Source of the DNA: Craspedostauros australis
Taxonomy: Eukaryota
Direction: 5' to 3'
Length of the DNA stretch: 64,000 nt
NCBI GenBank assembly: GCA_030167865.1
Contig: JALAGF010006669.1
Location: 1-64,000 of the forward strand
Each line of letters begins with the position of its first letter. Within the stretch, counting starts at the first letter, position 1. Under the pieces are notes generated by a model. It was not told the DNA's origin. It searched no databases and worked only from the letters and a program-made list of their open reading frames with translations. A program made the position numbers and the translations under genes. This document shows, one piece after another, positions 17,804-63,551 of this stretch.

Positions 17804-18217
17804 GTTGGTGCTTGATGTGTCGGTGTTTCTCTTGATTGGAAGTTACTGGAATGTAGGGTTGAGCACTTGCACTTGGATTTGTCTGCGTGTGTTGTATTCT
17901 GTGGTCTATGCTCTGTACTCTGTACTCTGCTTGTGATTGTGATGTCTGGAGGAGGAATTGGATCAGGAGAGGTGGGATGAGTTTAACGGTTTGGTCGAGT
18001 TGGCAAACTATTGAAACGGAGACGGTAGTTGGGTATAAGATCGTGTCTAAAAGTGTTGTTTGACGGATTGTGATCTGTCTCTTTCTTCTGCGGTGCACCT
18101 TCTGTGCCTTTTTGTTGTCTGCTGCTGCTCGTGACTCCTCTGAGCCCTCGTGACTGGTTTCGCTCCAATACAAACATGAAACGACAGAACACACTGCGGG
18201 GCTCTTCTCTCTGCGTA

Positions 18218-20258
18218 CCTTCCACCTCACTCACTCGGCAAACCGATAGCACTAGTTGTAGAGTTTTTGCCGTGTTCCTTGTCAGATTGACTCGTGTTTG
18301 GATGATCCCGGGAGTATCGGTAATGATACCGACACCGCAGTTTCACAAGCCAGCTAGTGTTTAGTGACGTCACTGGTTGTTTGTTTCACGGAAAATTACA
18401 GTGGACTCACCAGACTCAGGATTCTTGGTGAAGGTTTGGAGGCATTCGTCGGAATTCTGTTGTGATTTCCCACACCCCAACAGCAAGAAAAGACCGTCAC
18501 CAAGAAAAGAAACACAACAACACGACAATGGGGAAACAAAACAACGCTCTGTGAGAACCGCCAAAAGTCATGGACGGCAATGCATCAACCACCAGTCCAA
18601 TGCCAGATCCAAGCACATCAACGGAAACGCCATAGAAATATTGGTGGATGGGCAAGAGGGAGCTATCAGAGCGGTTCATTTGAATCAGCGATAGTGAAAA
18701 GAGCGAAACGTGCAAAAATGCGTCNNNNNNNNNNNNNNNNNNNNNNNNNNNNNNNNNNNNNNNNNNNNNNNNNNGTGTTCCTTGTCAGATTGACTCGTGT
18801 TTGGATGATCCCGGGAGTATCGGTAATGATACCGACACCGCAGTTTCACAAGCCAGCTAGTGTTTAGTGACGTCACTGGTTGTTTGTTTCACGGAAAATT
18901 ACAGTGGACTCACCAGACTCAGGATTCTTGGTGAAGGTTTGGAGGCATTCGTNNNNNNNNNNNNNNNNNNNNNNNNNNNNNNNNNNNNNNNNNNNNNNNN
19001 NNNNNNNNNNNNNNNNNNNNNNNNNNNNNNNNNNNNNNNNNNNNNNNNNNNNNNNNNNNNNNNNNNNNNNNNNNNNNNNNNNNNNNNNNNNNNNNNNNNN
19101 NNNNNNNNNNNNNNNNNNNNNNNNNNNNNNNNNNNNNNNNNNNTTGGTGGATGGGCAAGAGGGAGCTATCAGAGCGGTTCATTTGAATCAGCGATAGTGA
19201 AAAGAGCGAAACGTGCAAAAATGCGTCAAAAATGCATGTTGGGGACGGGATGTGTGTGGACGATACAAGCCATTTAAACAACCATGGATGGGCAGGATGC
19301 ATCAAGGGGATCAAGATGAAGGGTCCTACGAAGTTTGAGGCTGAAAGAACGCCTGGAGGGTGTCGATGGAGGGGAACAAGTGGAGTGCAAGAGTTTTTGG
19401 GGTGGTGACAAAGCACCCATCACGTGGCTTTGCTGGTGTGGTGGCGCACGTGAACATCCGCCACATCGCCAACCCACCCATACAAGATGTGTTCATTATC
19501 AAGTCAAGAATGGGGTTGGAGAAGTGGGGATCGATTACATTGAGTGGAAGAGGTTGAAATGAAGCAAATGCTGCAGTCGCATTTTTTCGATACGAAGAAA
19601 AACTGACGATGGCATCAGCGTCAGGATGGATACAAAATTGGAGATCCATCTTGAGGCGTTTTGGGATGTATCAACGTGTCCCCAGTGAATCAGGGATCGA
19701 GGGAGGCTGTGTGGGGGGAACAGAGATGGTTGTGATCGGGAGATATGATTGGATGAAGCAGCTGCCTTCGGACTGTCCTTCATTTTCAAAAATGTTGGAT
19801 TTCAGAAATGGGCTGCCAATGTGCATTGAACGGAGATCTGACGGTGCATGCTTGGCAGGGATGGATACATATGGGGTATATGGAGACAATGAGACGCGTA
19901 GGTGGTCGAAACGAGACGGTTATGGGCATAATCTTGGATGGCAAAGTGATGGCACCATGGTCCCATCCAGAATTTTGCGCCACACACAATCCCACGTTGA
20001 CAACAAAAATGATGTTAAATTTGAAGTCAATTTAAATTTAAGTTCAATATTCTTATTCGCAGCCAACGGTTTGTTCACATGGTACACTTATTTTTAATTA
20101 TGAATGATGTGGTGTTGCGATATAGCATCATAAGCATTTATTGGGATGGATTGCAATTTTACTCTAGACTGGGCTACGCAACACGACTAATCCCACGCTG
20201 GAGGGCAAAAAACTCTACAACTAGTGCTATCGCTTTGCCGAGTGAGTGAGGTGGAAGG
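18218..20258. mobile_element. Non-autonomous TIR DNA transposon (Tc1/mariner-like, TA target duplication)
   Basis: TIRs at 18218-18271 and 20204-20258 (CCTTCCACCTCACTCACTCGGCAAA[C/G]CGATAGCACTAGTTGTAGAGTTTTT..GCC; 1 mismatch, 1 indel). Flanking TA at 18216-17 and 20259-60. No transposase motif seen inside. Contains N-gaps. Confidence 0.85.
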
Positions 20259-50830: not shown

Positions 50831-53800
50831 ATGGCGCGCCCCATCCCACAGGTGAGAACGCGCCGAAAGAAGCGCAAGGCTTTGAATCACATCGACCAAA
50901 ACGTGGGGCAAGCCAATGCTGACTTGCTGCAGAAGAAGACGAAGCCAAGAGGCATCAGCTACAGCGCTATCTCGCTTTCGGATAGCCCTTTTGCTTTTGC
51001 CACATGGGAGAAGAACCTCCTGGCATCGGCCAAGACCCCGAAGATGAGCAACGTGCAGGGGCGGGAAACGGAGAAGCGGAAGGCAATAGCCGTCAACGCT
51101 GCAACCCAAGTCCTTGACGAAAAAGAGGGAGCAGCCAAACGCGCACCCTTGCTTTCGGCGTCGAGAACAGACACGATGTCTGCGGAGGGAGCGAAGAAGA
51201 CCAAGAACGAGACCAAGACCAAGCACATGGCCGATAGACAGGAACAAACATTGCGACCGCAAGCGGCGGCGATCGTGCAGGTGAAATCGCATCTACGCAG
51301 AGGTCAATCAGCGGGAGACACGGAAGACGATGGCTTGGATTTCTGTACAGTGTCACCTCGCCCCCCTCCAAGTGGTCGTAACGTCACTCACCGACGAAAA
51401 CGGAATCGGAATCGGAAGCCTTCAGGCAAGGAAGAACGAGATGAGGGCACAGCGCAGAGTCTGCCTGCGCAGCGCAAGTCTCCGTCACACTCTCAGCAAG
51501 CCTCAGATACTGGTGCTGCATCTCGTCCACAAACCGATGTTGAGTTGAAGAAGGGTGCCGCTGTTGGAGACTGTCGCGCAGCGTCTCATCCCAGCGACAA
51601 GGGTCCACAACAGCAAGGTGCGAACAACGCCGACGGGGATACTGGAGATACCGATACCAAGCATCAAGCTGTGGATGGATCTGGTCCCCTCCCTCCTGAT
51701 TCCAACTTGGATTCGCACAGCCAACAGAAACAACAGAATGATACAGAGGTGCAAGCAGAGCAGCATAGTACGACCGCAGCAGAACCTGCTCCATCGGGTG
51801 ATGGCGCAGGCCACAGAGTGACGGCGGCACAGCTTTCAATAGAGAAGGTGGACATTGAGAGTGGACAAGGTGTCAAGCACCCCGATGGCCAAACTGATCA
51901 TGACGCAGCCGGCACACACAGCAACGATGGAGACAGTGAGTGTTCGTCGGATATGGTCATCGCATCAAGTGGCAGTTCTTCATGCATGGAGCATGTGGCT
52001 GAAGACCTACAACGTGAGGCAGGCGACGGCGACTGCACTGAGTCCGACGCAGATACCACGGAATCCATGCAGATTCTCGACAAGACTTCAGGAGAGGATC
52101 ATCGCAACCACCACTTGCAGCAGATATTTGAACGAAACTGTGCTCATATTCACGTACAACGGACGAAATCAGCTCAAAGTCACACCACTCATGAGAGAGC
52201 TCAGAGCAATTCCGCCTTTCAATCACTGATCGATCGTTTGAAAACATCAAGCAGCAACGCTGCTGTCGGCGTCGCATCACAAGCGTGTGATTCGCACAAG
52301 AAGAGTGGCATCACCAGCAGTCGATGTCGCGAAGCGATATCATCGGTGCCACTTGGCGAAGGATGCGTAGGTGCCCGTGGGTCGGAGGCACATGGCAAAC
52401 GTGGCACTGTTGATGAGAAGGACAACGACGACCACAACTGCAGCAATGAAGAAGAAGAAGACGATGATGATGCTTCAATCGCCGTTTGGTCTCTCGATGA
52501 TGACACCAGTATTCCCACCGAGATTCATGTCCAAGGGCGTCGCTTCGTCCACCCGGCATTGCCGCCAGGATGGACAGTCCACACATCCAAAACGCGCGAT
52601 CGTCCATACTACAAACACCCCGACTTCGGAAGCACGTGGCATTGCCCCGTCATTCTCCCCTTGAAGATGCCAGGTCACCGTAGATCACTGATATCGGTGC
52701 GTGACGAAAAGGCTGACATGGAAGACGACAATACCAACGGCGATCGTATGGATGGGGCTATCGATGGCATCCGATTGCGGCCAGCCTCGATGACTCAGGG
52801 AGGAAAAGTGGGACAGCTGAAACCGATGCATCTCGTGGAACGGCAGAAAGGTGCCTCCCGACGCACCGCGGCTAGAACGAATGTGTTGGGACAACGAGAG
52901 CACTCTCGCGGCGGCCGGCATTCTCCTGCCCAGAGCGACCAATTCGAAAGCTCCATGTCCGACCTCATCGACACCGTCATCGAAATGAAAGAGCAGCACA
53001 ATGCGCGCTCCTCTCGAGTGAATCTGCGAGTCGATTCTGCATGTACACCAATAGTGGGCGCGGCTGCGAATGGGCGATCCAGCATCTTCAGACGTTTGCA
53101 CCACGCAGATGATGGCACGACGCCACCGTCGGCGTTCGGTGCCACCCAAGCCTCGCGTCCTCTCCGCTCTTCACTGTCTCCGCTTCAAGGCCAAACTCAA
53201 GCACATTCACGGCTGCAGTCTATTGCTGACCCGAATCCTCGACGGGGCCGACATGAGGCAATCCGAGAACTTGAGCACAACCCTGCGGCATCCACAGCTG
53301 TCCACCGCGACGATCGTAACAGCAGGCCTCCGAGTCGCAAGGCCACTATCAACAGCCCGTTGCGCCAAGCTGCTTCACGTCCCTCAACTTCGATCGCACC
53401 TTTGCCCAATGTCCCGAGACCCCGGCGGAGTCTTGGGCCGAGAAGCAGCACGCCGGTTCACAACACGAATCCCTCTCGGTCATACATCGGAGCATCGATG
53501 AGTAGATCGAAGACTGGCACATCAGGCGCAGAAGCAGGGCGCTTGGGGCTTCAAAGTCATCCAGACGAGCAATGCGGCGAGGGCGGCATGTACGATGGCA
53601 AGGGCAGTGGGAATGTACAGCAGCAGCGCCTCTGCAACCCGAGAACTACGTCAGTTGAGCAAAGCGCTAGCCCATGGACTCCCGTCGTGCCAAGATTGAT
53701 CTTCGGTCAACAGAGTGACAAATCTGCAGCTCCACCGAGATTTCAGACCAAGCTGCGCGGCAATGTCCAAGGTCCCGGTGTGTCTGCAACTGCCCCGCGC

Positions 53801-55117
53801 CACACGCACGACGAAGGACGCGCTGCACGCCAGACAACTGGATCGAGGTCCAACAGCGAGAAGTTTTCGTTCCAGGCCGTTGGGACGGTTGCCGAACGCT
53901 TGAGCAAAAGAATGCTGCGGCCTTCGTCGACGGTAGCTGGGATAGAGCAACCGCACCCCGTGCCAGCTGTGCGCGGGTTGAATTGGAAGCCATCAGTCAT
54001 CGCCCACGTCGCCGCAGCGAATCAACGTTTTCTCGTAGCCGATGGCGGTGCATACCAAGCTCGCCCCAGGGTTCGGAATGAGGCAAACACTGCAACGGTC
54101 GACGATCTCTCCGCAGCGCTTGCTAAGGTCGCAATTTCGCCGGCTCTCGATGTCAGTGCTGGTGGTGTGTTACATCCGGGCGATGTTGACAGCTCACCGC
54201 ATGTTTCTGAATATCAAAATAAAGACGACAAGAAGCAGCATCAGAGTGAGGACGGCCACCCCCTCCGTGATCATGATGTTCATGGTCATGCAACGCCTGA
54301 TCTTGATGGTGGTGCCACTGATGACGATGACGCAGTTGGGATTATTGGTCAAGATGAGCAACTTTCGTCGAGAGCTGAGGAGGAGCTGATGAAAGCAGGT
54401 AGCGACGGGTCGCCCGAGGATGACTTGGACCTGGATGCAATTTCTTCGCCAATGCAACACACAACGGATGGGCCTCGTGTCGGCCGTGGCCGGTTGAGCG
54501 CAAACGACGACCCGGGCACTGTTCCACCTGTGAGCGACGCTGGCCACAAGGGCGGCGGCCCGACATCTCCGCCAAAACGTACAGTAGAGATGCAAGACGG
54601 CCCAAAGCGACAAGATGGTAGGGAGAAAGCCGCTGCAGCACCCCAGTCACCCTCGCAGTCTCCTTCGGCATTGGCGCGGCGAGCATCACTGCTGCCGTTG
54701 CCTGCGTCTGTCGACTCGAAGGAGAACGATGTTTTCTTCGACTCCATGGGTGGAGACAGTCCACTCAGTATCGATTGCGGCAACCGCCACGATCATCAAG
54801 GCAATGACACAGATTTTGACTATGATGCGGTGTCAAACAGTTGTGGCGGCCACTCTGGCACGCATCGCCTTGCCAAACGCAGATCTAACGCAACCAAATC
54901 GTCGATGAAGACCAAATCCAAACAAGTCAGCGAATACGTGCTGCGGCAAAAGGACCCGCTCTGTCCGCTGCAACGCTTGGATACGATCGTCGACGAACGA
55001 GGACGAAGGCGCAAGCGAGACCGTTCGGCCCGGACGCTGGCTGATTACTTCACTCATGTCTTCTACCGGCCACCCCCGCGTTCCAAACGCCCAGGTAAAC
55101 GCTCTTCAAACAAGTAG
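50831..55117 (+). CDS. Large (1428 aa), mostly disordered protein with one WW domain
   Basis: 4.3-kb stop-free ORF. LPPGW..HTSKT..RPYY.H....STWHCP near 52555-52650 matches the WW consensus. Basic NLS-like stretches at both ends. Confidence 0.8.
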   Translation: MARPIPQVRTRRKKRKALNHIDQNVGQANADLLQKKTKPRGISYSAISLSDSPFAFATWEKNLLASAKTPKMSNVQGRETEKRKAIAVNAATQVLDEKEGAAKRAPLLSASRTDTMSAEGAKKTKNETKTKHMADRQEQTLRPQAAAIVQVKSHLRRGQSAGDTEDDGLDFCTVSPRPPPSGRNVTHRRKRNRNRKPSGKEERDEGTAQSLPAQRKSPSHSQQASDTGAASRPQTDVELKKGAAVGDCRAASHPSDKGPQQQGANNADGDTGDTDTKHQAVDGSGPLPPDSNLDSHSQQKQQNDTEVQAEQHSTTAAEPAPSGDGAGHRVTAAQLSIEKVDIESGQGVKHPDGQTDHDAAGTHSNDGDSECSSDMVIASSGSSSCMEHVAEDLQREAGDGDCTESDADTTESMQILDKTSGEDHRNHHLQQIFERNCAHIHVQRTKSAQSHTTHERAQSNSAFQSLIDRLKTSSSNAAVGVASQACDSHKKSGITSSRCREAISSVPLGEGCVGARGSEAHGKRGTVDEKDNDDHNCSNEEEEDDDDASIAVWSLDDDTSIPTEIHVQGRRFVHPALPPGWTVHTSKTRDRPYYKHPDFGSTWHCPVILPLKMPGHRRSLISVRDEKADMEDDNTNGDRMDGAIDGIRLRPASMTQGGKVGQLKPMHLVERQKGASRRTAARTNVLGQREHSRGGRHSPAQSDQFESSMSDLIDTVIEMKEQHNARSSRVNLRVDSACTPIVGAAANGRSSIFRRLHHADDGTTPPSAFGATQASRPLRSSLSPLQGQTQAHSRLQSIADPNPRRGRHEAIRELEHNPAASTAVHRDDRNSRPPSRKATINSPLRQAASRPSTSIAPLPNVPRPRRSLGPRSSTPVHNTNPSRSYIGASMSRSKTGTSGAEAGRLGLQSHPDEQCGEGGMYDGKGSGNVQQQRLCNPRTTSVEQSASPWTPVVPRLIFGQQSDKSAAPPRFQTKLRGNVQGPGVSATAPRHTHDEGRAARQTTGSRSNSEKFSFQAVGTVAERLSKRMLRPSSTVAGIEQPHPVPAVRGLNWKPSVIAHVAAANQRFLVADGGAYQARPRVRNEANTATVDDLSAALAKVAISPALDVSAGGVLHPGDVDSSPHVSEYQNKDDKKQHQSEDGHPLRDHDVHGHATPDLDGGATDDDDAVGIIGQDEQLSSRAEEELMKAGSDGSPEDDLDLDAISSPMQHTTDGPRVGRGRLSANDDPGTVPPVSDAGHKGGGPTSPPKRTVEMQDGPKRQDGREKAAAAPQSPSQSPSALARRASLLPLPASVDSKENDVFFDSMGGDSPLSIDCGNRHDHQGNDTDFDYDAVSNSCGGHSGTHRLAKRRSNATKSSMKTKSKQVSEYVLRQKDPLCPLQRLDTIVDERGRRRKRDRSARTLADYFTHVFYRPPPRSKRPGKRSSNK

Positions 55118-56218: not shown

Positions 56219-57113
56219 GTTGTGGCAGAAAGAGTATGAACGATGAACGATGGACGATGAACGATGCACAATGGGCGATGGACAGGGAGGAGGTGCTTGC
56301 TGGGTGTTGTGGTGTTGTCCATTGTTGCGGTGAGATACCGACAACATGCCCGTTTGAAACGACCGTTCATATTTCTGACGACGGTCCAACGGCCATTCTC
56401 AGTCTTGTATTCGATGTGCACGAGCTGTGTGACCGTTGCGAAAGATACCGCCTTGTTGGATCATTAGAGAGTTATCGCATGTAACTTCAATGAGTCCCGG
56501 GGTACAAAATAACCTGATAGAGATATTTTTCGGGGGGTACGGGCGAGCCAGCCACTCCTTAGATTTACATGCCATGCGTTTTGAAGCTTTTATTTTACAT
56601 GCCATGTAACTCCAACAGTCCCGCCAAATGAGAACTCCACGCGGAAGTAAAGTGAATTGACAATTTGTTACCCAATCATAGTCGCACACTTCTGGTCTAT
56701 TCGCATCTTCATTGTTCTCGAGTTTGCCTTGTTTCTTTTTTAGATTAGCGTCAATGTGAACGGTTCGACCCAATTTTCGTGGTCGAAGGGATCGTGTTTC
56801 TCCGCACGTCCTTCGTTGCGTCTGTTGGTGCAGCTGCCGCAAAAGCGCGGGCAGATGGCGCGAAACTGACGAATGCCACTTACGTCATTCGAAGATGCAG
56901 CACAACAGCAGGCAGCCACCATCAGCACCATGCCAGAAAAAAAACAAACAAAACAACAACAAGCCGGTCACCGATTTGTGTTGAGAGAAAAACTGATGTG
57001 TTCGAACAGAGCGAGATCCCTCTTCATCCACACCCAAACAACAATCATCTTCCCCACACATCCATCTTGTTCACACACCCTTCATCGCTCATCCATTGAG
57101 ATACTATGCCATC

Positions 57114-58598
57114 ATGTCCTCCCCTCTCCAGTCGGACCACCCACATTGGCTTCCTTCCGATGGAAGTGAAATCGATGACGAGAACAGCACTCACAGCAGC
57201 GCCATGAGCATTCGCTCCATCACCGCCAAATCTATTCCTGCAAATGCAACCCCAGCCTCCATTCGTGACGACGCCGCTGACGTTGATCCACCTGCTGCAG
57301 GTCCCTCTGACGAGGTCGTCGTCCTCCCAGATGGCCTTGTTGATGAAGGTATGGCCACCTCCGACGAGGAGATTGACACTGCAACGATGAAGATCCTCTC
57401 CATCCCAACCACAAAGCGCGTCAACCGGTCGACGGCGAGGGCTCTGCGTGCTGTTCAGGCCGCCAAGTCAGCCACCAAGTACCTCAAGGTCAAGAAGGAG
57501 AAGACCGACAACACCATCCCCTCATCGTTGCAGGTGAAGATCAAGAAGGAGAAGACTGATGACAGCATCCCCTCGTCATCCTCAAAGGCTGCAAAAGCAT
57601 CACGTACTTCCAAGCAGAAGGGCACGGCCCGAGGACACACTCACATGATGTACTCGATGGAGTACCCCCCAGTGTACCCCTGGATCGAGATGCCGCGCCC
57701 CATTGATGTATCCATGATGATGTACGTGTGGGCCAACGACCCCAAGCCTTGGGAGTCCGTTTCTCTGCATTATTGGAAGGCATGCAGTCAGCATCTCTTC
57801 AAGTCAAAGGCATTGGGGTTGAACAAGGTGCCTCGCGCAAGAGGTCTTGCCGAGCGGTTCGAATACCTGATGGTGTTTGTGGACTACTACATTCAAGACC
57901 AAGATCACAGGACAGGTGGCAACGAGTCCTATCCGGACTACTTGAAGAAGCTCACCGAGATCCGAGAGCTCCGACATTTGTTCTCCTCGAAGAAGAACAA
58001 CACAGTGGAGCAACAACAGGAGGAGAAGCGGGTTATTGAGAATATGTTGGATCGGATGCTGGGGAAGCGTCCTCCCATTCTCATCTGCAGCTCCTCAAAA
58101 GGGAAAGCGAAGAAGGGTGGCAACAGCGGCAACAGTGCCCAGTCCTCGGATGACTCATCAAAAAAGAAGGCATCAAAGAAAACAAGAACTTCTGTACATG
58201 ATGTGAAGGAAGAGCACAAACAAACTCTCCTGCTCGCAACTGCATTGGAGAAGGCTCAGGAAAAAATCTGTGAGCGGATTGACAAAAAGAAGAAAAGATC
58301 CAATCCACCTCCAATCAAGGTGGTGGACATCAACTGCATTGCTGCCACTACCTCTCCAGGCACTGCAGCCACAGATTGCAATTCTCTCACCAGCTCCGCA
58401 ACATTGCCACTTTTGCATGCTCTGCACCAGCAGCAAGAGCTGCTTCAAGACATGAAGCACAAGCAACAGCAACAGCACGAGCGCGCTGAGCAACATCATC
58501 ATGAGGTGTTCGCTCAGCAGGCAAGCATTGCCACCAGCTTGAAGGAGCTTGTTGGCATCCTTGGCAAGCAACAATCGAATGGCACTCAATCACCATGA
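57114..58598 (+). CDS. Transposon ORF2, putative Myb/SANT-like (trihelix) DNA-binding partner
   Basis: Intact 494-aa ORF inside the TIRs. Core W..C...L......AR...ERF..L......RTG followed by basic and coiled-coil/Q-rich regions, the layout typical of Harbinger ORF2. Internal duplication KVKKEKTDNTIPSS / KIKKEKTDDSIPSS. Confidence 0.75.
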   Translation: MSSPLQSDHPHWLPSDGSEIDDENSTHSSAMSIRSITAKSIPANATPASIRDDAADVDPPAAGPSDEVVVLPDGLVDEGMATSDEEIDTATMKILSIPTTKRVNRSTARALRAVQAAKSATKYLKVKKEKTDNTIPSSLQVKIKKEKTDDSIPSSSSKAAKASRTSKQKGTARGHTHMMYSMEYPPVYPWIEMPRPIDVSMMMYVWANDPKPWESVSLHYWKACSQHLFKSKALGLNKVPRARGLAERFEYLMVFVDYYIQDQDHRTGGNESYPDYLKKLTEIRELRHLFSSKKNNTVEQQQEEKRVIENMLDRMLGKRPPILICSSSKGKAKKGGNSGNSAQSSDDSSKKKASKKTRTSVHDVKEEHKQTLLLATALEKAQEKICERIDKKKKRSNPPPIKVVDINCIAATTSPGTAATDCNSLTSSATLPLLHALHQQQELLQDMKHKQQQQHERAEQHHHEVFAQQASIATSLKELVGILGKQQSNGTQSP

Positions 58599-59572
58599 GC
58601 AATCCTTCAAAAAATTGCTGCTGTGTTTTCTCACACCTTCTCCTTCCCTTCCATGACAGCTGCATTCCGTTTCTCCTCCATTTCATTCTTATGTCCCATT
58701 CATGATACACACTTGCACTGCCCCCATCACACCCAACCACCAAATGGATAGCAATATCACACTACAGCAAAAAGGACTGATGCATCACCCCATTCCCTAT
58801 GCTGCCACATCCACGATCCACACCTTGATGCATTCCAGAGTCCATCGGCCTATCCATGGATTTGTGCATTTTGCCTCCACCTGCCACACCATCGTTTCCT
58901 CTTCTACCGTCAACATTGGACATCTGCAAAGTGACAGATGTCCAATGTTTGCTTCAATCCATCAATCTTTGGATGCAGCCACAACAACAACCCTCAAGCA
59001 AAGCGGAGTAAGTCTCAATAGTGAACCCGTTTCCTATACAGAGTACTCAATTTGCAGTCTTCATGCAACGTCCTGTCTTCTCATGTTCAACCTGCACGCC
59101 CAATCGCATCCTTCGTGCACACATACGATGGTATCCGCGGCGCAAACTGCTCGTGTGCAATTCTAATCCATCGTCGTCATCCTCGTCATCCTCATCATCC
59201 TCGCCGCCATGCCTGTGAACGTCCGGTTCATGCTTTCCAAGATGCACGGAGGAGGGCACGAGCATTCCTCCAACCAGTCCATGGTACTCCCCATCGTCAC
59301 TAGCAGCAGCATCCGCGCGCAACACGCCAACTTATTCTCTTGATGGCCATGGTCACGGCAACCACCATCGCCACCACTGCCATCAACATCGTCACAACAT
59401 CGGCTGCTTGTGCAATCGATGGCTGGTGGAATGGAAAAATTATGCGCGGATTTGACGCTAGAATCCTCTGTCCTTTGCTGTCCATGAAATGATCATCATC
59501 CCCGTTGCAACACACAATGACAGCCTGCGCCGATCAAGGGTGGATTGAAACACACGCGCCCCTCTTCGCATA

Positions 59573-61549
59573 CCATCATCAGCAACGCCATCATCAGCAA
59601 CGCCATCATTTGCGACGCCATCATCAGCGATGCCATCATCAGTGACGCCATAACTTGCGACGCCGTCATCAGCAATGCCATCATCAGTGACGCCATCATC
59701 AGTGACGCCATCATTTGCGACGCCATCATTTGCGACGCCATCATCAGTGACGCCATCATCAGGGACGCCATAACTTGCGATGCCATCATCAGCGATGCCA
59801 TCATCAGTGACGCCATCATTTGCGACGCCATCATCAGCAATGCCATCATCAGCAATGCCATCATCAGCAATGCCATCATCAGCAATGCCATCATCAGCAA
59901 TGCCATCATCAGCAACGCCATCATCAGCGACGCCATAATTTGCGACGCCATCATCAGCGACTCCATCATCCGCACCGCCATCATCCGCAACACCATCATC
60001 CGCAACACCATCATCCGCGACGCCATAATTTGCGACGCCATCATCAGCGATGCCAGCATCAGCGACGCCATAATTTGCGGCGCCATCATCACCGATGCCA
60101 TCATCAGTGACGCCATCATCAGCGTTGCCATCATCACCAACGCCATCATTTGCGACATTATTATCAGCGATGCCATCATCAGCAACGCCATCATCAGTGA
60201 CGCCATAACTTGCGACGCCATCATCAGCGATGCCATCATTTGCGACGCCATCATTTGCAACGCCATCATCAGCAATGCCATCATCAGTGACGCCATCATT
60301 TGCGACGCCATCATTTGCGACGCCATCATCAGCAATGCCATCATCAGCAACGCCATTATCAGCGACGCCATCATCAGCGACGCCATCATCAGCGATGCCA
60401 TCATCCGCAACGCCATCATCAGCAACGCCATCATCAGTGACGCCATCAACAGTGACGCCATCATTAGCAACGCCATCATCCGCGATGCCATAATTTGCGA
60501 CGCCATCATCAGCAACGCCATCATTTGCGACGCTATCATCAGTGACGCCATCATCCGCAACNNNNNNNNNNNNNNNNNNNNNNNNNNNNNNNNNNNNNNN
60601 NNNNNNNNNNNNNNNNNNNNNNNNNNNNNNNNNNNNNNNNNNNNNNNNNNNNNNNNGCGACGCCATCATCAGCGACGCCATCATCAGCAACGCCATCATC
60701 AGCGATGCCATCATCAGCAACGCCATCATCAGCAACGCCATCATCAGTGACGCCATCAACAGTGACGCCATCATTTGCGACGCCATCATCAGTGACGATA
60801 TCATCAGCGACGCCACAGCAACTCCATCATTTGCGACGTTATTGTCAGCGACGCCATCATCAGCAACGCCATCATCCGCAACGCCATCATCCGCAACGCC
60901 ATCATCCGCGACGCCATCATCCGCAACGCCATCATCAGCAACGCCATAATTTGCGACGCCATCATCAGCGACGCCATAATTTGCGATGCCATCATCAGCA
61001 ACGCCATCATCAGCAACGCCATCAACAGTGACGCCATAATTTGCGACGCCATAATTTGCGACGCCATCATCAGCAACGCCATCATCAGCGACGTCATAAT
61101 TTGCGACGCCATCAATTGCAACGCCATCATTTGCAACGCCATCATCAGCGACTCCATCATTTGCGACGTTATTGTCAGCGACGCCATCATCCGCAACGCC
61201 ATCATCAGCGATGCCATCATCCGTGAAGCCATCATCCGTGAAGCCATAATTTGCAACGCCATCATCAGCGATGCCATCATCAGCAACGCCATAATTTGCG
61301 ACGCCATCATCATCAACGCCATCATCAGTGACGCCATCATCAGCGACGCCATAACTTGCGACGCCATCATCAGCGATGCCATCATCCGTGAAGCCATCAT
61401 CCGTGAAGCCATCATTTGCAACGCCATCATCAGCGATGCCATCATCAGCGATGCCATCATCAGCAACGCCATCATCAGCGATGCCATCATTTGCGACGGT
61501 ATCATTTGTGACAATATCATCAGCGACGCCATCATTTGCAACGCCATCA
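59573..61549. repeat. 15-bp minisatellite, consensus GCCATCATCAGCGAC, about 130 units
   Basis: Directly visible tandem array, interrupted by a 95-N gap (60562-60656) and one 4-nt-shorter unit near 60811-60822. Confidence 0.97.
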
Positions 61550-61649
61550 CATGCGCCACGAACGCGATGTAACTAGGACATAGTAACAGTTGATTATGTA
61601 TGGCACTATCGAAAGTGCACAGTATTGAAATGAACGACAGCCAATTGGA

Positions 61650-62864
61650 TCATGGAATCAAGCTGATATACTCCTCCATGGACAGCTTTTCAGATGTGTA
61701 TCGTGATGATTGCTCATTGCCATAGAGTGTGCAACGAAGGTTGGTGAAAAATGCCGCAATGTACTGCATGTGGGTGAGCGGATTCCAATACATCTTGAGC
61801 TGATTCTTCACCCCCAGCAATGGGAAGTTCCTGCCGATCTCCATGAACTCCCACTCAACACAGATTCGTGCACTAGACATGTCCTTGTTGCACAGAGCTT
61901 CAGAAGAACCCCGAGTGGTGTTGCGAAATGCACCAAGGATGTATGCTGTTGTTTGGTACGCCGGATCGCCATACAAACAATACAGCGGATCGTGACCAGG
62001 CAACGGCATCAATTGGCGCAAGTGATCCTCAACTTCACTCTCACGCAGCATGTGCATGTCATGACAGGCACCCAGGATGGGCCCATAGTAATGAAGAATC
62101 AATCCATCTGCACCAACAATCCCTTGAAACTTCACTCCATGCAGATGCTTGTGTCCAGAATACGCCAATTCTTGGTTGTAGGTTGGTCGGCACGTCGCAG
62201 AGAACGTCCCGTCAACGAAGCCGATGACATTGTTGACCAATTGTTTTGTGAGCTTGCAGACATTGCCAGCGTACTGCTGAAAGCGAGGGTAGAACAGCCC
62301 AATGTCACTCAGGTATGGAGCCGCGATTTCATAGAAGTAAAGAAAGAAGGTGGAACAGATACAAGAAAGCCTGTTGACATCCATATCGAAGCGATCCTCC
62401 ATGTCAATCAATCGATCTCGATGAGCCAATCGATACAGCATGATCAGAACACCGACCTCGAAGGACACAGCCAAGCGATTCTTCACCTGTATAGATCTGG
62501 GATCGGCCTCGCCAGACACAGCGTTGAATTTTGGCCAAAGCGCGACGAGGATTCGACGCAGGTGGTCCTTCCGAAACCGGAAGTGTTTCAGAGCATCCCT
62601 CTCTGACAGCTGACGAATTGTGACACCACGATTGCTATGAATCCGTGGAGGATCCAGTGGAAGAAGGTATTGATGCTGTAGTTGCAGGGTGTGCACGCCA
62701 AGGGCAAGCACATTGCGGAAGTGCAGAAGGAGATCCTCCATGTCGTCATCGTCAAGATCATCTATTGGAAGCTGAGCTAGCCATGTAGCGGCACGCACGA
62801 ATCTGGCCCTTGCCTCTGCGCAGGCCTCGCGCTCGGGCAAGCAATTCCACACGCGTTGAGACAT
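61650..62864 (-). CDS. Harbinger/HARBI1-type DDE transposase (DDE_Tnp_4-like), intact
   Basis: Motifs: FRFRK, L.IMLYRLA..R..DM...F (HTH region), IGFVDGT (D), YSGHK..HG.KFQ, GPI.G..HD..ML, LYGDPAY (D), N..MSSARICVEWEF (E). Start could be ATG 62912 or 62864. Confidence 0.93.
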   Translation of the reverse strand: MSQRVWNCLPEREACAEARARFVRAATWLAQLPIDDLDDDDMEDLLLHFRNVLALGVHTLQLQHQYLLPLDPPRIHSNRGVTIRQLSERDALKHFRFRKDHLRRILVALWPKFNAVSGEADPRSIQVKNRLAVSFEVGVLIMLYRLAHRDRLIDMEDRFDMDVNRLSCICSTFFLYFYEIAAPYLSDIGLFYPRFQQYAGNVCKLTKQLVNNVIGFVDGTFSATCRPTYNQELAYSGHKHLHGVKFQGIVGADGLILHYYGPILGACHDMHMLRESEVEDHLRQLMPLPGHDPLYCLYGDPAYQTTAYILGAFRNTTRGSSEALCNKDMSSARICVEWEFMEIGRNFPLLGVKNQLKMYWNPLTHMQYIAAFFTNLRCTLYGNEQSSRYTSEKLSMEEYISLIP

Positions 62865-63551
62865 CTTTGGGAGAAGTCCATTGTGGGAACATATGCGAGG
62901 CAAGTGGTGCATATGACCAACATGGCAGAGACACTGAAACGGAAGAGGAGGCAAAGATACGAACAAGCACGAACATGCAGGTGGAAGAGCTGAACATTAT
63001 TTTTTGTTCGTTGTGAACGGAAACGACAAGTGGAGAGGAACGAACTTCCTCTTGTGAGAATCTCGCGCCAAAGCAGGCTACTCGAAAACATGGATAAGGC
63101 TAGACAACCTTGATGACGTCATCGTATGATTACTTTGATTTACGTCAGTCCTTCCAAGATTCAATGTCACAGCGAACCTTGGGGGGAGGCGTCCCAAATC
63201 GCGTCACATCGACAGTTTCAGGGGATGGCTTAAAGTTACCAGCGATAACTCTCTATTGGGAATGGTTCGCGTTTGCAAGTTCTCCAAGACGGTAGCTGAC
63301 GCAGTACAAATGCTCAGAAGATCGAGTTTCAACCACCCACAGGAACAAGTGCACGAAGTTCGGTCAGATTTTTTCCCAGGTTCGTCATCCCTCCACTGCG
63401 CAGCGATCTGCTGCGAGTCCAGGCAGCTTCCCGAAGCAATCCTCCGATTGGTACATCATCTCAGCTCCGTTCGGTCCTCGATTTTAACCAAGTCGCATCA
63501 CATCACATCAAATCACATCACATCGCGATCGAAGAGACGACGACAAGCATC

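Follow-up and report, generated by a model that had tools for sequence, protein, structure and literature searches.

Why would a DNA transposon carry a 2-kb minisatellite between its two genes? The question is raised by a stretch of 64,000 nucleotides from Craspedostauros australis (GCA_030167865.1, contig JALAGF010006669.1, positions 1 to 64,000 of the forward strand), referred to as the window, in which positions 56466–63254 form an element proper of 6789 bp bounded by two ATT triplets. Its second open reading frame (ORF2, forward strand) and its transposase gene (reverse strand) are convergent, tail-to-tail, and an array of a 15-bp unit lies between them. The element is an autonomous-looking, intact two-gene cut-and-paste transposon. 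As to the array, we consider it probable that the minisatellite is a tolerated passenger of variable length, which has grown by slippage in a dispensable spacer.

Arrays in related elements

The assembly searched comprises 65.9 Mb in 6734 contigs with approximately 54% GC. It holds 86 matches to the transposase, ranging from 97% down to about 45% identity over long stretches. The DNA between the two genes was measured in 14 elements for which a single contig contains both of them, leaving out a few duplicate or broken-off contigs. In nine of the 14, the spacer is array-free, measures 288–656 bp and contains no more than 60 bp of tandem repeat. Arrays were found in the other five and are of three unit types, namely the 15-mer of the window, an 86-mer in a sister family, and GGAT-type arrays of 0.3–1.3 kb in contigs C5711, C6294 and C5121. 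On the transposase tree, these five elements fall into two separately supported clades. The sister family (C5934, G000:C5934:1-8992, L077) has both ORFs intact, with 74% (transposase) and 41% (ORF2) identity to the window family, and contains 4.5 kb of an 86-bp unit with 12-bp GAYGATGGC sub-repeats; the 86-mer is confined to this family (35 matches on 3 contigs). Many ends of the sister family are identical over 45 bases at different sites, and mini-elements of approximately 1.4 kb exist, so that by sequence it looks younger or more recently active than the window family. These mini-elements possess both ends and matching duplications and are without array, as seen in C6694, all of whose bases are called, and in C5422, which contains a gap of 184 N.

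Relatives were also sought in metagenomes. A scan with the single transposase retained 0 of 142 candidates, while a scan with the transposase alignment found 294 sequences, of which 80 were kept; for viral contigs the count was none of 16. A convergent ORF2 homolog is present in 5 of the 80, and no array of at least 200 bp was detected in the 50 metagenomic relatives having at least 500 bp downstream. Three further tandem repeats were seen beside relatives: 102-bp units near a family member (L090:7177-7979; by inference an ankyrin-like coding repeat), 196-bp units near another (L168:5807-6404), and a 21-bp unit with GATGGC beside a transposase, on its ORF-proximal side (L163:3226-3443).

For the passenger reading we propose the following course, whose first steps are taken over from characterized PIF/Harbinger elements. 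A Myb-like ORF2 protein would bind a family-specific motif at the element end and recruit the DDE transposase, which would cut at the element's terminal inverted repeats (TIRs) and insert at ANT. The stretch separating the two stop codons, already CATC-rich, would be dispensable for movement because relatives without arrays exist. Short CATC-containing words would then have been amplified, presumably by slippage and unequal exchange and separately in each family, giving the 15-mer array here, the 86-mer in the sister family and the GGAT-type in a third clade. Once present, an array would be carried along, change its length between copies and decay by CpG transitions. Growth from local words of the spacer would also account for the GATG core shared by otherwise unrelated arrays.

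Several observations weigh against this reading. Some array is kept in all 7 family contigs reaching the site, including three copies from which ORF2 has been removed (by one shared deletion), and the family which looks most recently active, the sister family, has the even larger array. Something is conserved in the spacer, as 12 of 14 GC skews are ≤−0.44 compared to 3 of 77 host gene downstream regions at ≤−0.4. The 14 elements represent about six independent lineages only, and short-read contigs break at arrays, which biases the counts of 9/14 and 0/50 towards absence. Nevertheless, the original prediction that the array is a functional module does not agree with nine of 14 relatives lacking one, with units differing between families, with the absence of the likely ORF2 site (CATGTAA, see below) from the array and with the lack of arrays seeded outside.

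Structure and classification of the element

The target-site duplication ATT is located at 56463–56465 (left) and 63255–63257 (right). The left TIR of 25 bp (56466–56490, forward strand) begins with AGAG and matches the right TIR (63230–63254, reverse strand) at 22 of 25 bases. TIRs, ATT duplication, uninterrupted transposase, uninterrupted partner ORF and 15-mer array had all been predicted and are each borne out by the sequence; only the span assigned earlier, 56463 to 63257, is too wide, since these limits take in the target duplication. A search for the predicted empty site of the element gave no match. The transposase ORF (61650–62912, reverse strand) is intact, running over 420 aa without a stop, and matches Pfam DDE_Tnp_4 (E 9.7e-18); besides this, Pfam gave merely a weak DDE_Tnp_1 match. 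The motifs GFVDGT, YGDPAY and CVEWEF begin at residues 231, 314 and 351, respectively, and the residues D234, D316 and E353 are invariant across 27 aligned transposase relatives.

The element had been ascribed to the Harbinger superfamily. An intact two-gene element of PHIS/Harbinger type is indeed present, but its ANT target places it in Pangu rather than in PIF/Harbinger proper. ANT flanks 41 of 51 distinct genome ends (20 ATT, 16 AAT, 3 AGT, 2 ACT), while TNA, the target of PIF/Harbinger proper, flanks none of the 51; these ends pool several related families, and a few loci may be counted twice. Matching pairs of ANT-type duplications were found in C5422, C6694 and C5522. In the passages of the defining paper cited here, the Pangu group of the PHIS superfamily has an ANT target, TIRs of 11–40 bp beginning with AG or GG, a DDE transposase and a second ORF, mostly without recognized domain (PMC4482050). 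The element in the window shows an ANT target, 25-bp AG-starting TIRs, an IS5/Harbinger-type DDE transposase without other domains and a convergent ORF of 494 aa, and the same layout occurs in the 14 elements selected for having both genes. Since its targets are ANT and its TIRs start with AG, we assign the element to Pangu; the transposase tree was built from unnamed relatives, and the assignment rests on sequence features of target, TIR and ORFs, not on clade position.

With 6.8 kb, the element is larger than the Pangu mean of approximately 3.5 kb (PMC4482050, in part). The word “tandem” was not found in the main text of that paper, and no diatom is among its supplementary rows covering 30 of 35 “Pangu” places. 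ANT-targeting Harbinger elements of Ectocarpus share the Stramenopile host, the two tail-to-tail genes and the ANT duplication, but an internal array is not mentioned in main-text passages of the report (PMC12477816). PIF/Harbinger proper, e.g., Harbinger3_DR, has a transposase and, probably, a Myb-like partner in common with the element (PMC9710019, in part), but differs by its TNA target, and ORF2 here has no Pfam Myb match.

Array length and copies of the family

Tandem Repeats Finder (TRF) reported an array at 59573–61549 with period 15, consensus GCCATCATCAGCGAC, 131.4 copies and a score of 1568. It makes up 29% of the element, and 100 bp separate its end from the transposase stop. The earlier statement of about 130 copies starting approximately 100 bp past the transposase stop is in accordance with this, but omitted an assembly gap of 95 N within the array (60562–60656). 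In fact, 125 units are called, 66 and 59 on either side of the gap, and the true array length is uncertain. The earlier description also left out a non-repeat spacer of approximately 970 bp (58599–59572, forward strand), which separates the ORF2 stop from the array.

Due to this gap in mid-array, the length of 2 kb could be an assembly artefact, with the two halves overlapping or deriving from two different copies. The longest exact stretch shared with other copies is 46 bases for the left half, compared to 235 (with C6580) for the right half, and ATT/ATT is the commonest target, hence the matching duplication is weak proof. On the other hand, the halves have just 59 exact bases in common and thus do not overlap, independent contigs show the same order of left end, spacer, array and transposase, and the right flank of the element is single-copy in the assembly. 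We regard an artefact of this kind as very improbable. The layout itself is no misjoin either, because spacer, array and transposase are joined on C6580 and C2650, both contigs without a gap.

An exact two-unit pattern of the 15-mer was matched 84 times (control: 0), and the 7 contigs concerned are all element DNA of the window family. As predicted, the array travels inside the element. Arrays of the 15-mer outside the element, as expected of a satellite seeded by a transposon, were not found in the assembly, whose fragmentation could hide free arrays. The array comprises about 21 units in C2650 and about 53 in C6580 (both flanks present, array gap-free), compared to 125 or more in the window. 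C5532 has about 59 units, but its right side is replaced by other DNA; C4752 and C2644 end within the array, and C4745 is interrupted.

Near copies of the transposase on 7 contigs have 93.8–99.2% DNA identity, yet a transposase stop is present in 4 of the 7, so that the claim of recent activity receives moderate support. The only intact close ORF2 in the assembly is that of the window copy. One common deletion removes ORF2 in C5532, C2644 and C6580, and the same junction was found in C4248. Judging from these sequences, the family may be moderately young, with the window element as its sole intact copy.

Coding capacity and base composition of the array

Three of six reading frames are stop-free over the 122 scored units (39 distinct variants), and variation is lowest at the middle codon positions. 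Accordingly, the array might be an exon of a third gene whose protein repeats a pentapeptide, namely ADDGV if the minus strand is read or IISDA if the plus strand is read. However, shuffling the observed variants keeps the same frames open in 98–100% of 2000 runs. Furthermore, the frame is broken by a 4-nt deletion common to the window, C4752 and C6580, no ATG precedes the ADDGV frame, and none of the six frames of the sister 86-mer array is free of stops. A coding role was rejected based on the shuffling result, the frameshift deletion and the stops in the sister array, and we consider its probability negligible. For RNA, Rfam returned 0 matches, and folding of 300 nt of the array gave no unusual stability (z of +3.1 and −0.4).

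The array is CpG-rich, with an observed/expected ratio of 1.44 versus 0.63–0.78 in the ORFs, and transitions at the two CpGs of the consensus unit account for 94 of the 235 deviations from it. This could point to a target of methylation or small RNAs that sets the strength of silencing. But the transposase shows the same decay: in comparisons of its near copies, 87 of 131 transitions are in CpG-type context versus 28% of sites, although pairs share mutations. Thus, the CpG decay fits methylation of the whole element and shows no role of the array. The make-up of the GGAT arrays is different as well, and a silencing target appears improbable to us.

ORF2 and its candidate binding site

ORF2 (57114–58598, forward strand) is open for 494 aa and intact; its only Pfam match is DUF6548 (E 0.03). 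No Pfam Myb domain was found in 15 ORF2 cores, and a Myb_DNA-bind_4 match below the cut-off appeared in 1 of 20 distant homologs. Full-length ORF2 retrieved 0 of 7999 scored candidates from a protein collection, a PDB sequence search gave nothing below E 0.086, and a profile search with the core yielded 24 weak relatives. The conserved helical core (approximately aa 180–325) was modeled with a predicted local distance difference test score (pLDDT) of 80.5. Its top structural matches are the Sap1 DNA-binding domain (Z 7.7, root mean square deviation 3.0, 101 aligned), GT-1 (Z 5.7) and NgTRF (Z 5.6), followed by Zeste (Z 5.4) and ISWI (Z 5.1), all five of them below Z 8, the safe level of the tool. 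We take all of these to be Myb/SANT/trihelix-type domains. Foldseek found nothing at E ≤0.001 but also ranked Sap1 first, and Atlas MADF/Myb clusters reached scores of 0.84–0.87, which are leads only. Judging from the fold model and these structural matches, ORF2 is likely a DNA-binding protein of the Myb/SANT-like kind, probably the Myb/SANT-like partner that had been proposed.

Where would such a protein bind? The word CATGTAA (or TTACATG) occurs four times in the left 200 bp (56478–56612), once in the TIR tail and three times subterminally, and forms a near-palindrome; it is found neither in the right 200 bp nor in the array. The right end of this copy is without CATGTAA, since two bases in its TIR deviate from those of other copies. 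A subterminal motif of 9 bp is bound by the Myb-like protein of zebrafish Harbinger3_DR according to the cited part of PMC9710019, and this short partner-binding motif serves as the model for CATGTAA here. By this analogy, CATGTAA is a likely ORF2 binding site. In other families, too, a TIR-tail word of their own recurs in subterminal position, namely TTTCCATCGAG in C5522 and CTCAGCTC in the C4822 mini-element (by eye). This mini-element, approximately 604 bp long and with TIRs of the C5711 type, is located upstream of the ORF2 that belongs to another Pangu copy (L156:2-605, G000:C4822). By eye, the TIR core AG..G..TATCGCA is kept in each family, followed by an own word of 7–11 bases which recurs about 100–140 bp inside the end (L089, L096, L156, L164 and window 56466–56665).

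The leading idea of the original prediction was that the array forms a multivalent platform for ORF2 binding. The plausibly Myb-like fold of ORF2 would suit it, the terminal repeat has GCCAT in common with the array, where this word occurs 109 times (TGCCAT: 25 times), and GAYGATGGC is shared by the 15-mer and the 86-mer (by eye). In contrast, GCCAT is all that the array shares with the end; a count of CATGTAA, TGCCATG and CATGCCATG in the array gave 0 for each, and most relatives encode ORF2 yet have no array. From these sequence comparisons, we judge a binding platform to be quite improbable.

Composition of the spacer

The non-repeat spacer 3′ of the ORF2 stop is markedly rich in C and in CATC on the forward strand, with a GC skew of −0.54 in its first 200 nt. 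On the transposase strand, GATG outnumbers CATC in every one of the 14 spacers, i.e., they are CATC-rich on the antisense strand. Over the 200 nt that follow the ORF2 stop, the GC skew is −0.44 to −0.62 in 12 of the 14 elements; the other two show −0.23 and +0.10, the latter in an element with a broken ORF2 and a misplaced boundary. Host composition was taken from 256 kb, in which “genes” are long ORFs rather than annotations. In the 200 nt upstream of these ORFs, CATC exceeds GATG in 46 of 64 cases, with the opposite in 6 and a tie in 12, and in downstream regions in 25 versus 22 opposite (17 tied). This upstream signature of the host, rich in CATC and C, was seen in window 1–56400 and in L184–L203; examples are CATCA repeats at 63496–63524 and ATGAACG repeats at 56236–56283. 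Thus, the composition of the spacer resembles that of a promoter or leader directed towards the transposase tail. The skewed region next to the ORF2 stop may also be the 3′ untranslated region of ORF2.

Consequently, the spacer could be a promoter-like module which fires antisense RNA into the 3′ end of the transposase and dampens the element, with the arrays as an amplified signal. In all 14 spacers, the polarity typical of host upstream regions lies on the strand antisense to the transposase; the spacer skew is as strong as, or stronger than, the extremes among host upstream regions (which go down to −0.56, with 11 of 77 at ≤−0.4), and 0 of 16 host convergent intergenic regions exceed a skew of 0.2. 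However, the diatom initiator-like word TCAHW (PMC4686930) is barely polarized in the array (11.2 versus 9.0 per kb). The skew reaches its maximum next to the ORF2 stop, at 1 kb distance from the array, and array-free elements show it as well; the host reference genes are long ORFs, and metagenomic relatives show no such polarity. Given this compositional evidence, we consider an antisense module unlikely. A more far-reaching version would be that the Pangu elements here keep a strand-polarized, promoter-like module producing antisense RNA against their own transposase, and that families independently amplified kilobase arrays whose length tunes self-repression; on the same compositional grounds this is rather doubtful.

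As a separate observation, 7 of the 14 elements (L089, L090, L091, L094, L095, L156, L078; by eye) have the splice-donor-like word GGTGAGT as the last bases of the spacer, read on the transposase strand, directly at the ORF2 stop. Its position could be due to chance or to splicing of a read-through transcript.

Other features of the window

A DUF3067 protein is encoded in the neighborhood of the element. The Atlas cluster closest to it (score 0.90) consists mostly of Bacillariophyta, which is a lead towards a diatom host but does not identify it. Upstream, a low-complexity ORF of 1428 aa (50831–55117, forward strand) has one weak WW match (E 0.075). At 18001–20050, GC dips to 42%; this region contains N gaps (18725–18774 and 18953–19143) and a 17-bp duplication (20015–20048), and is possibly another repeat.

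Comparison with other transposons and significance

Internal tandem repeats have been reported in Merlin families, which are DNA transposons (PMC8101967, in part). With Merlin, Tetris (PMC4079207) and DINE-TR1 (PMC6947457), the element shares tandem repeats of variable length inside a transposon, as far as described in the cited parts of these papers. Here, in contrast, the array lies between convergent genes, sister families have other units, and no spread outside is seen. No title or opening of an abstract describing an array between Pangu or Harbinger genes was found in the literature covered, which does not include Repbase and most subscription journals.

On the best reading, the element is one more intact Pangu element, from a diatom as the probable host group; the defining paper, in its cited part, counted only two potentially active Pangu families (PMC4482050). 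As sibling families each have their own end motif and their own ORF2, the role of the Pangu ORF2 would be easy to test. If spacer and array do act through antisense RNA, they would give a DNA transposon a means of self-control that is tunable by length. If the array is a passenger, as we believe is probable, tandem repeats would have arisen repeatedly at one and the same site in sibling families without spreading.

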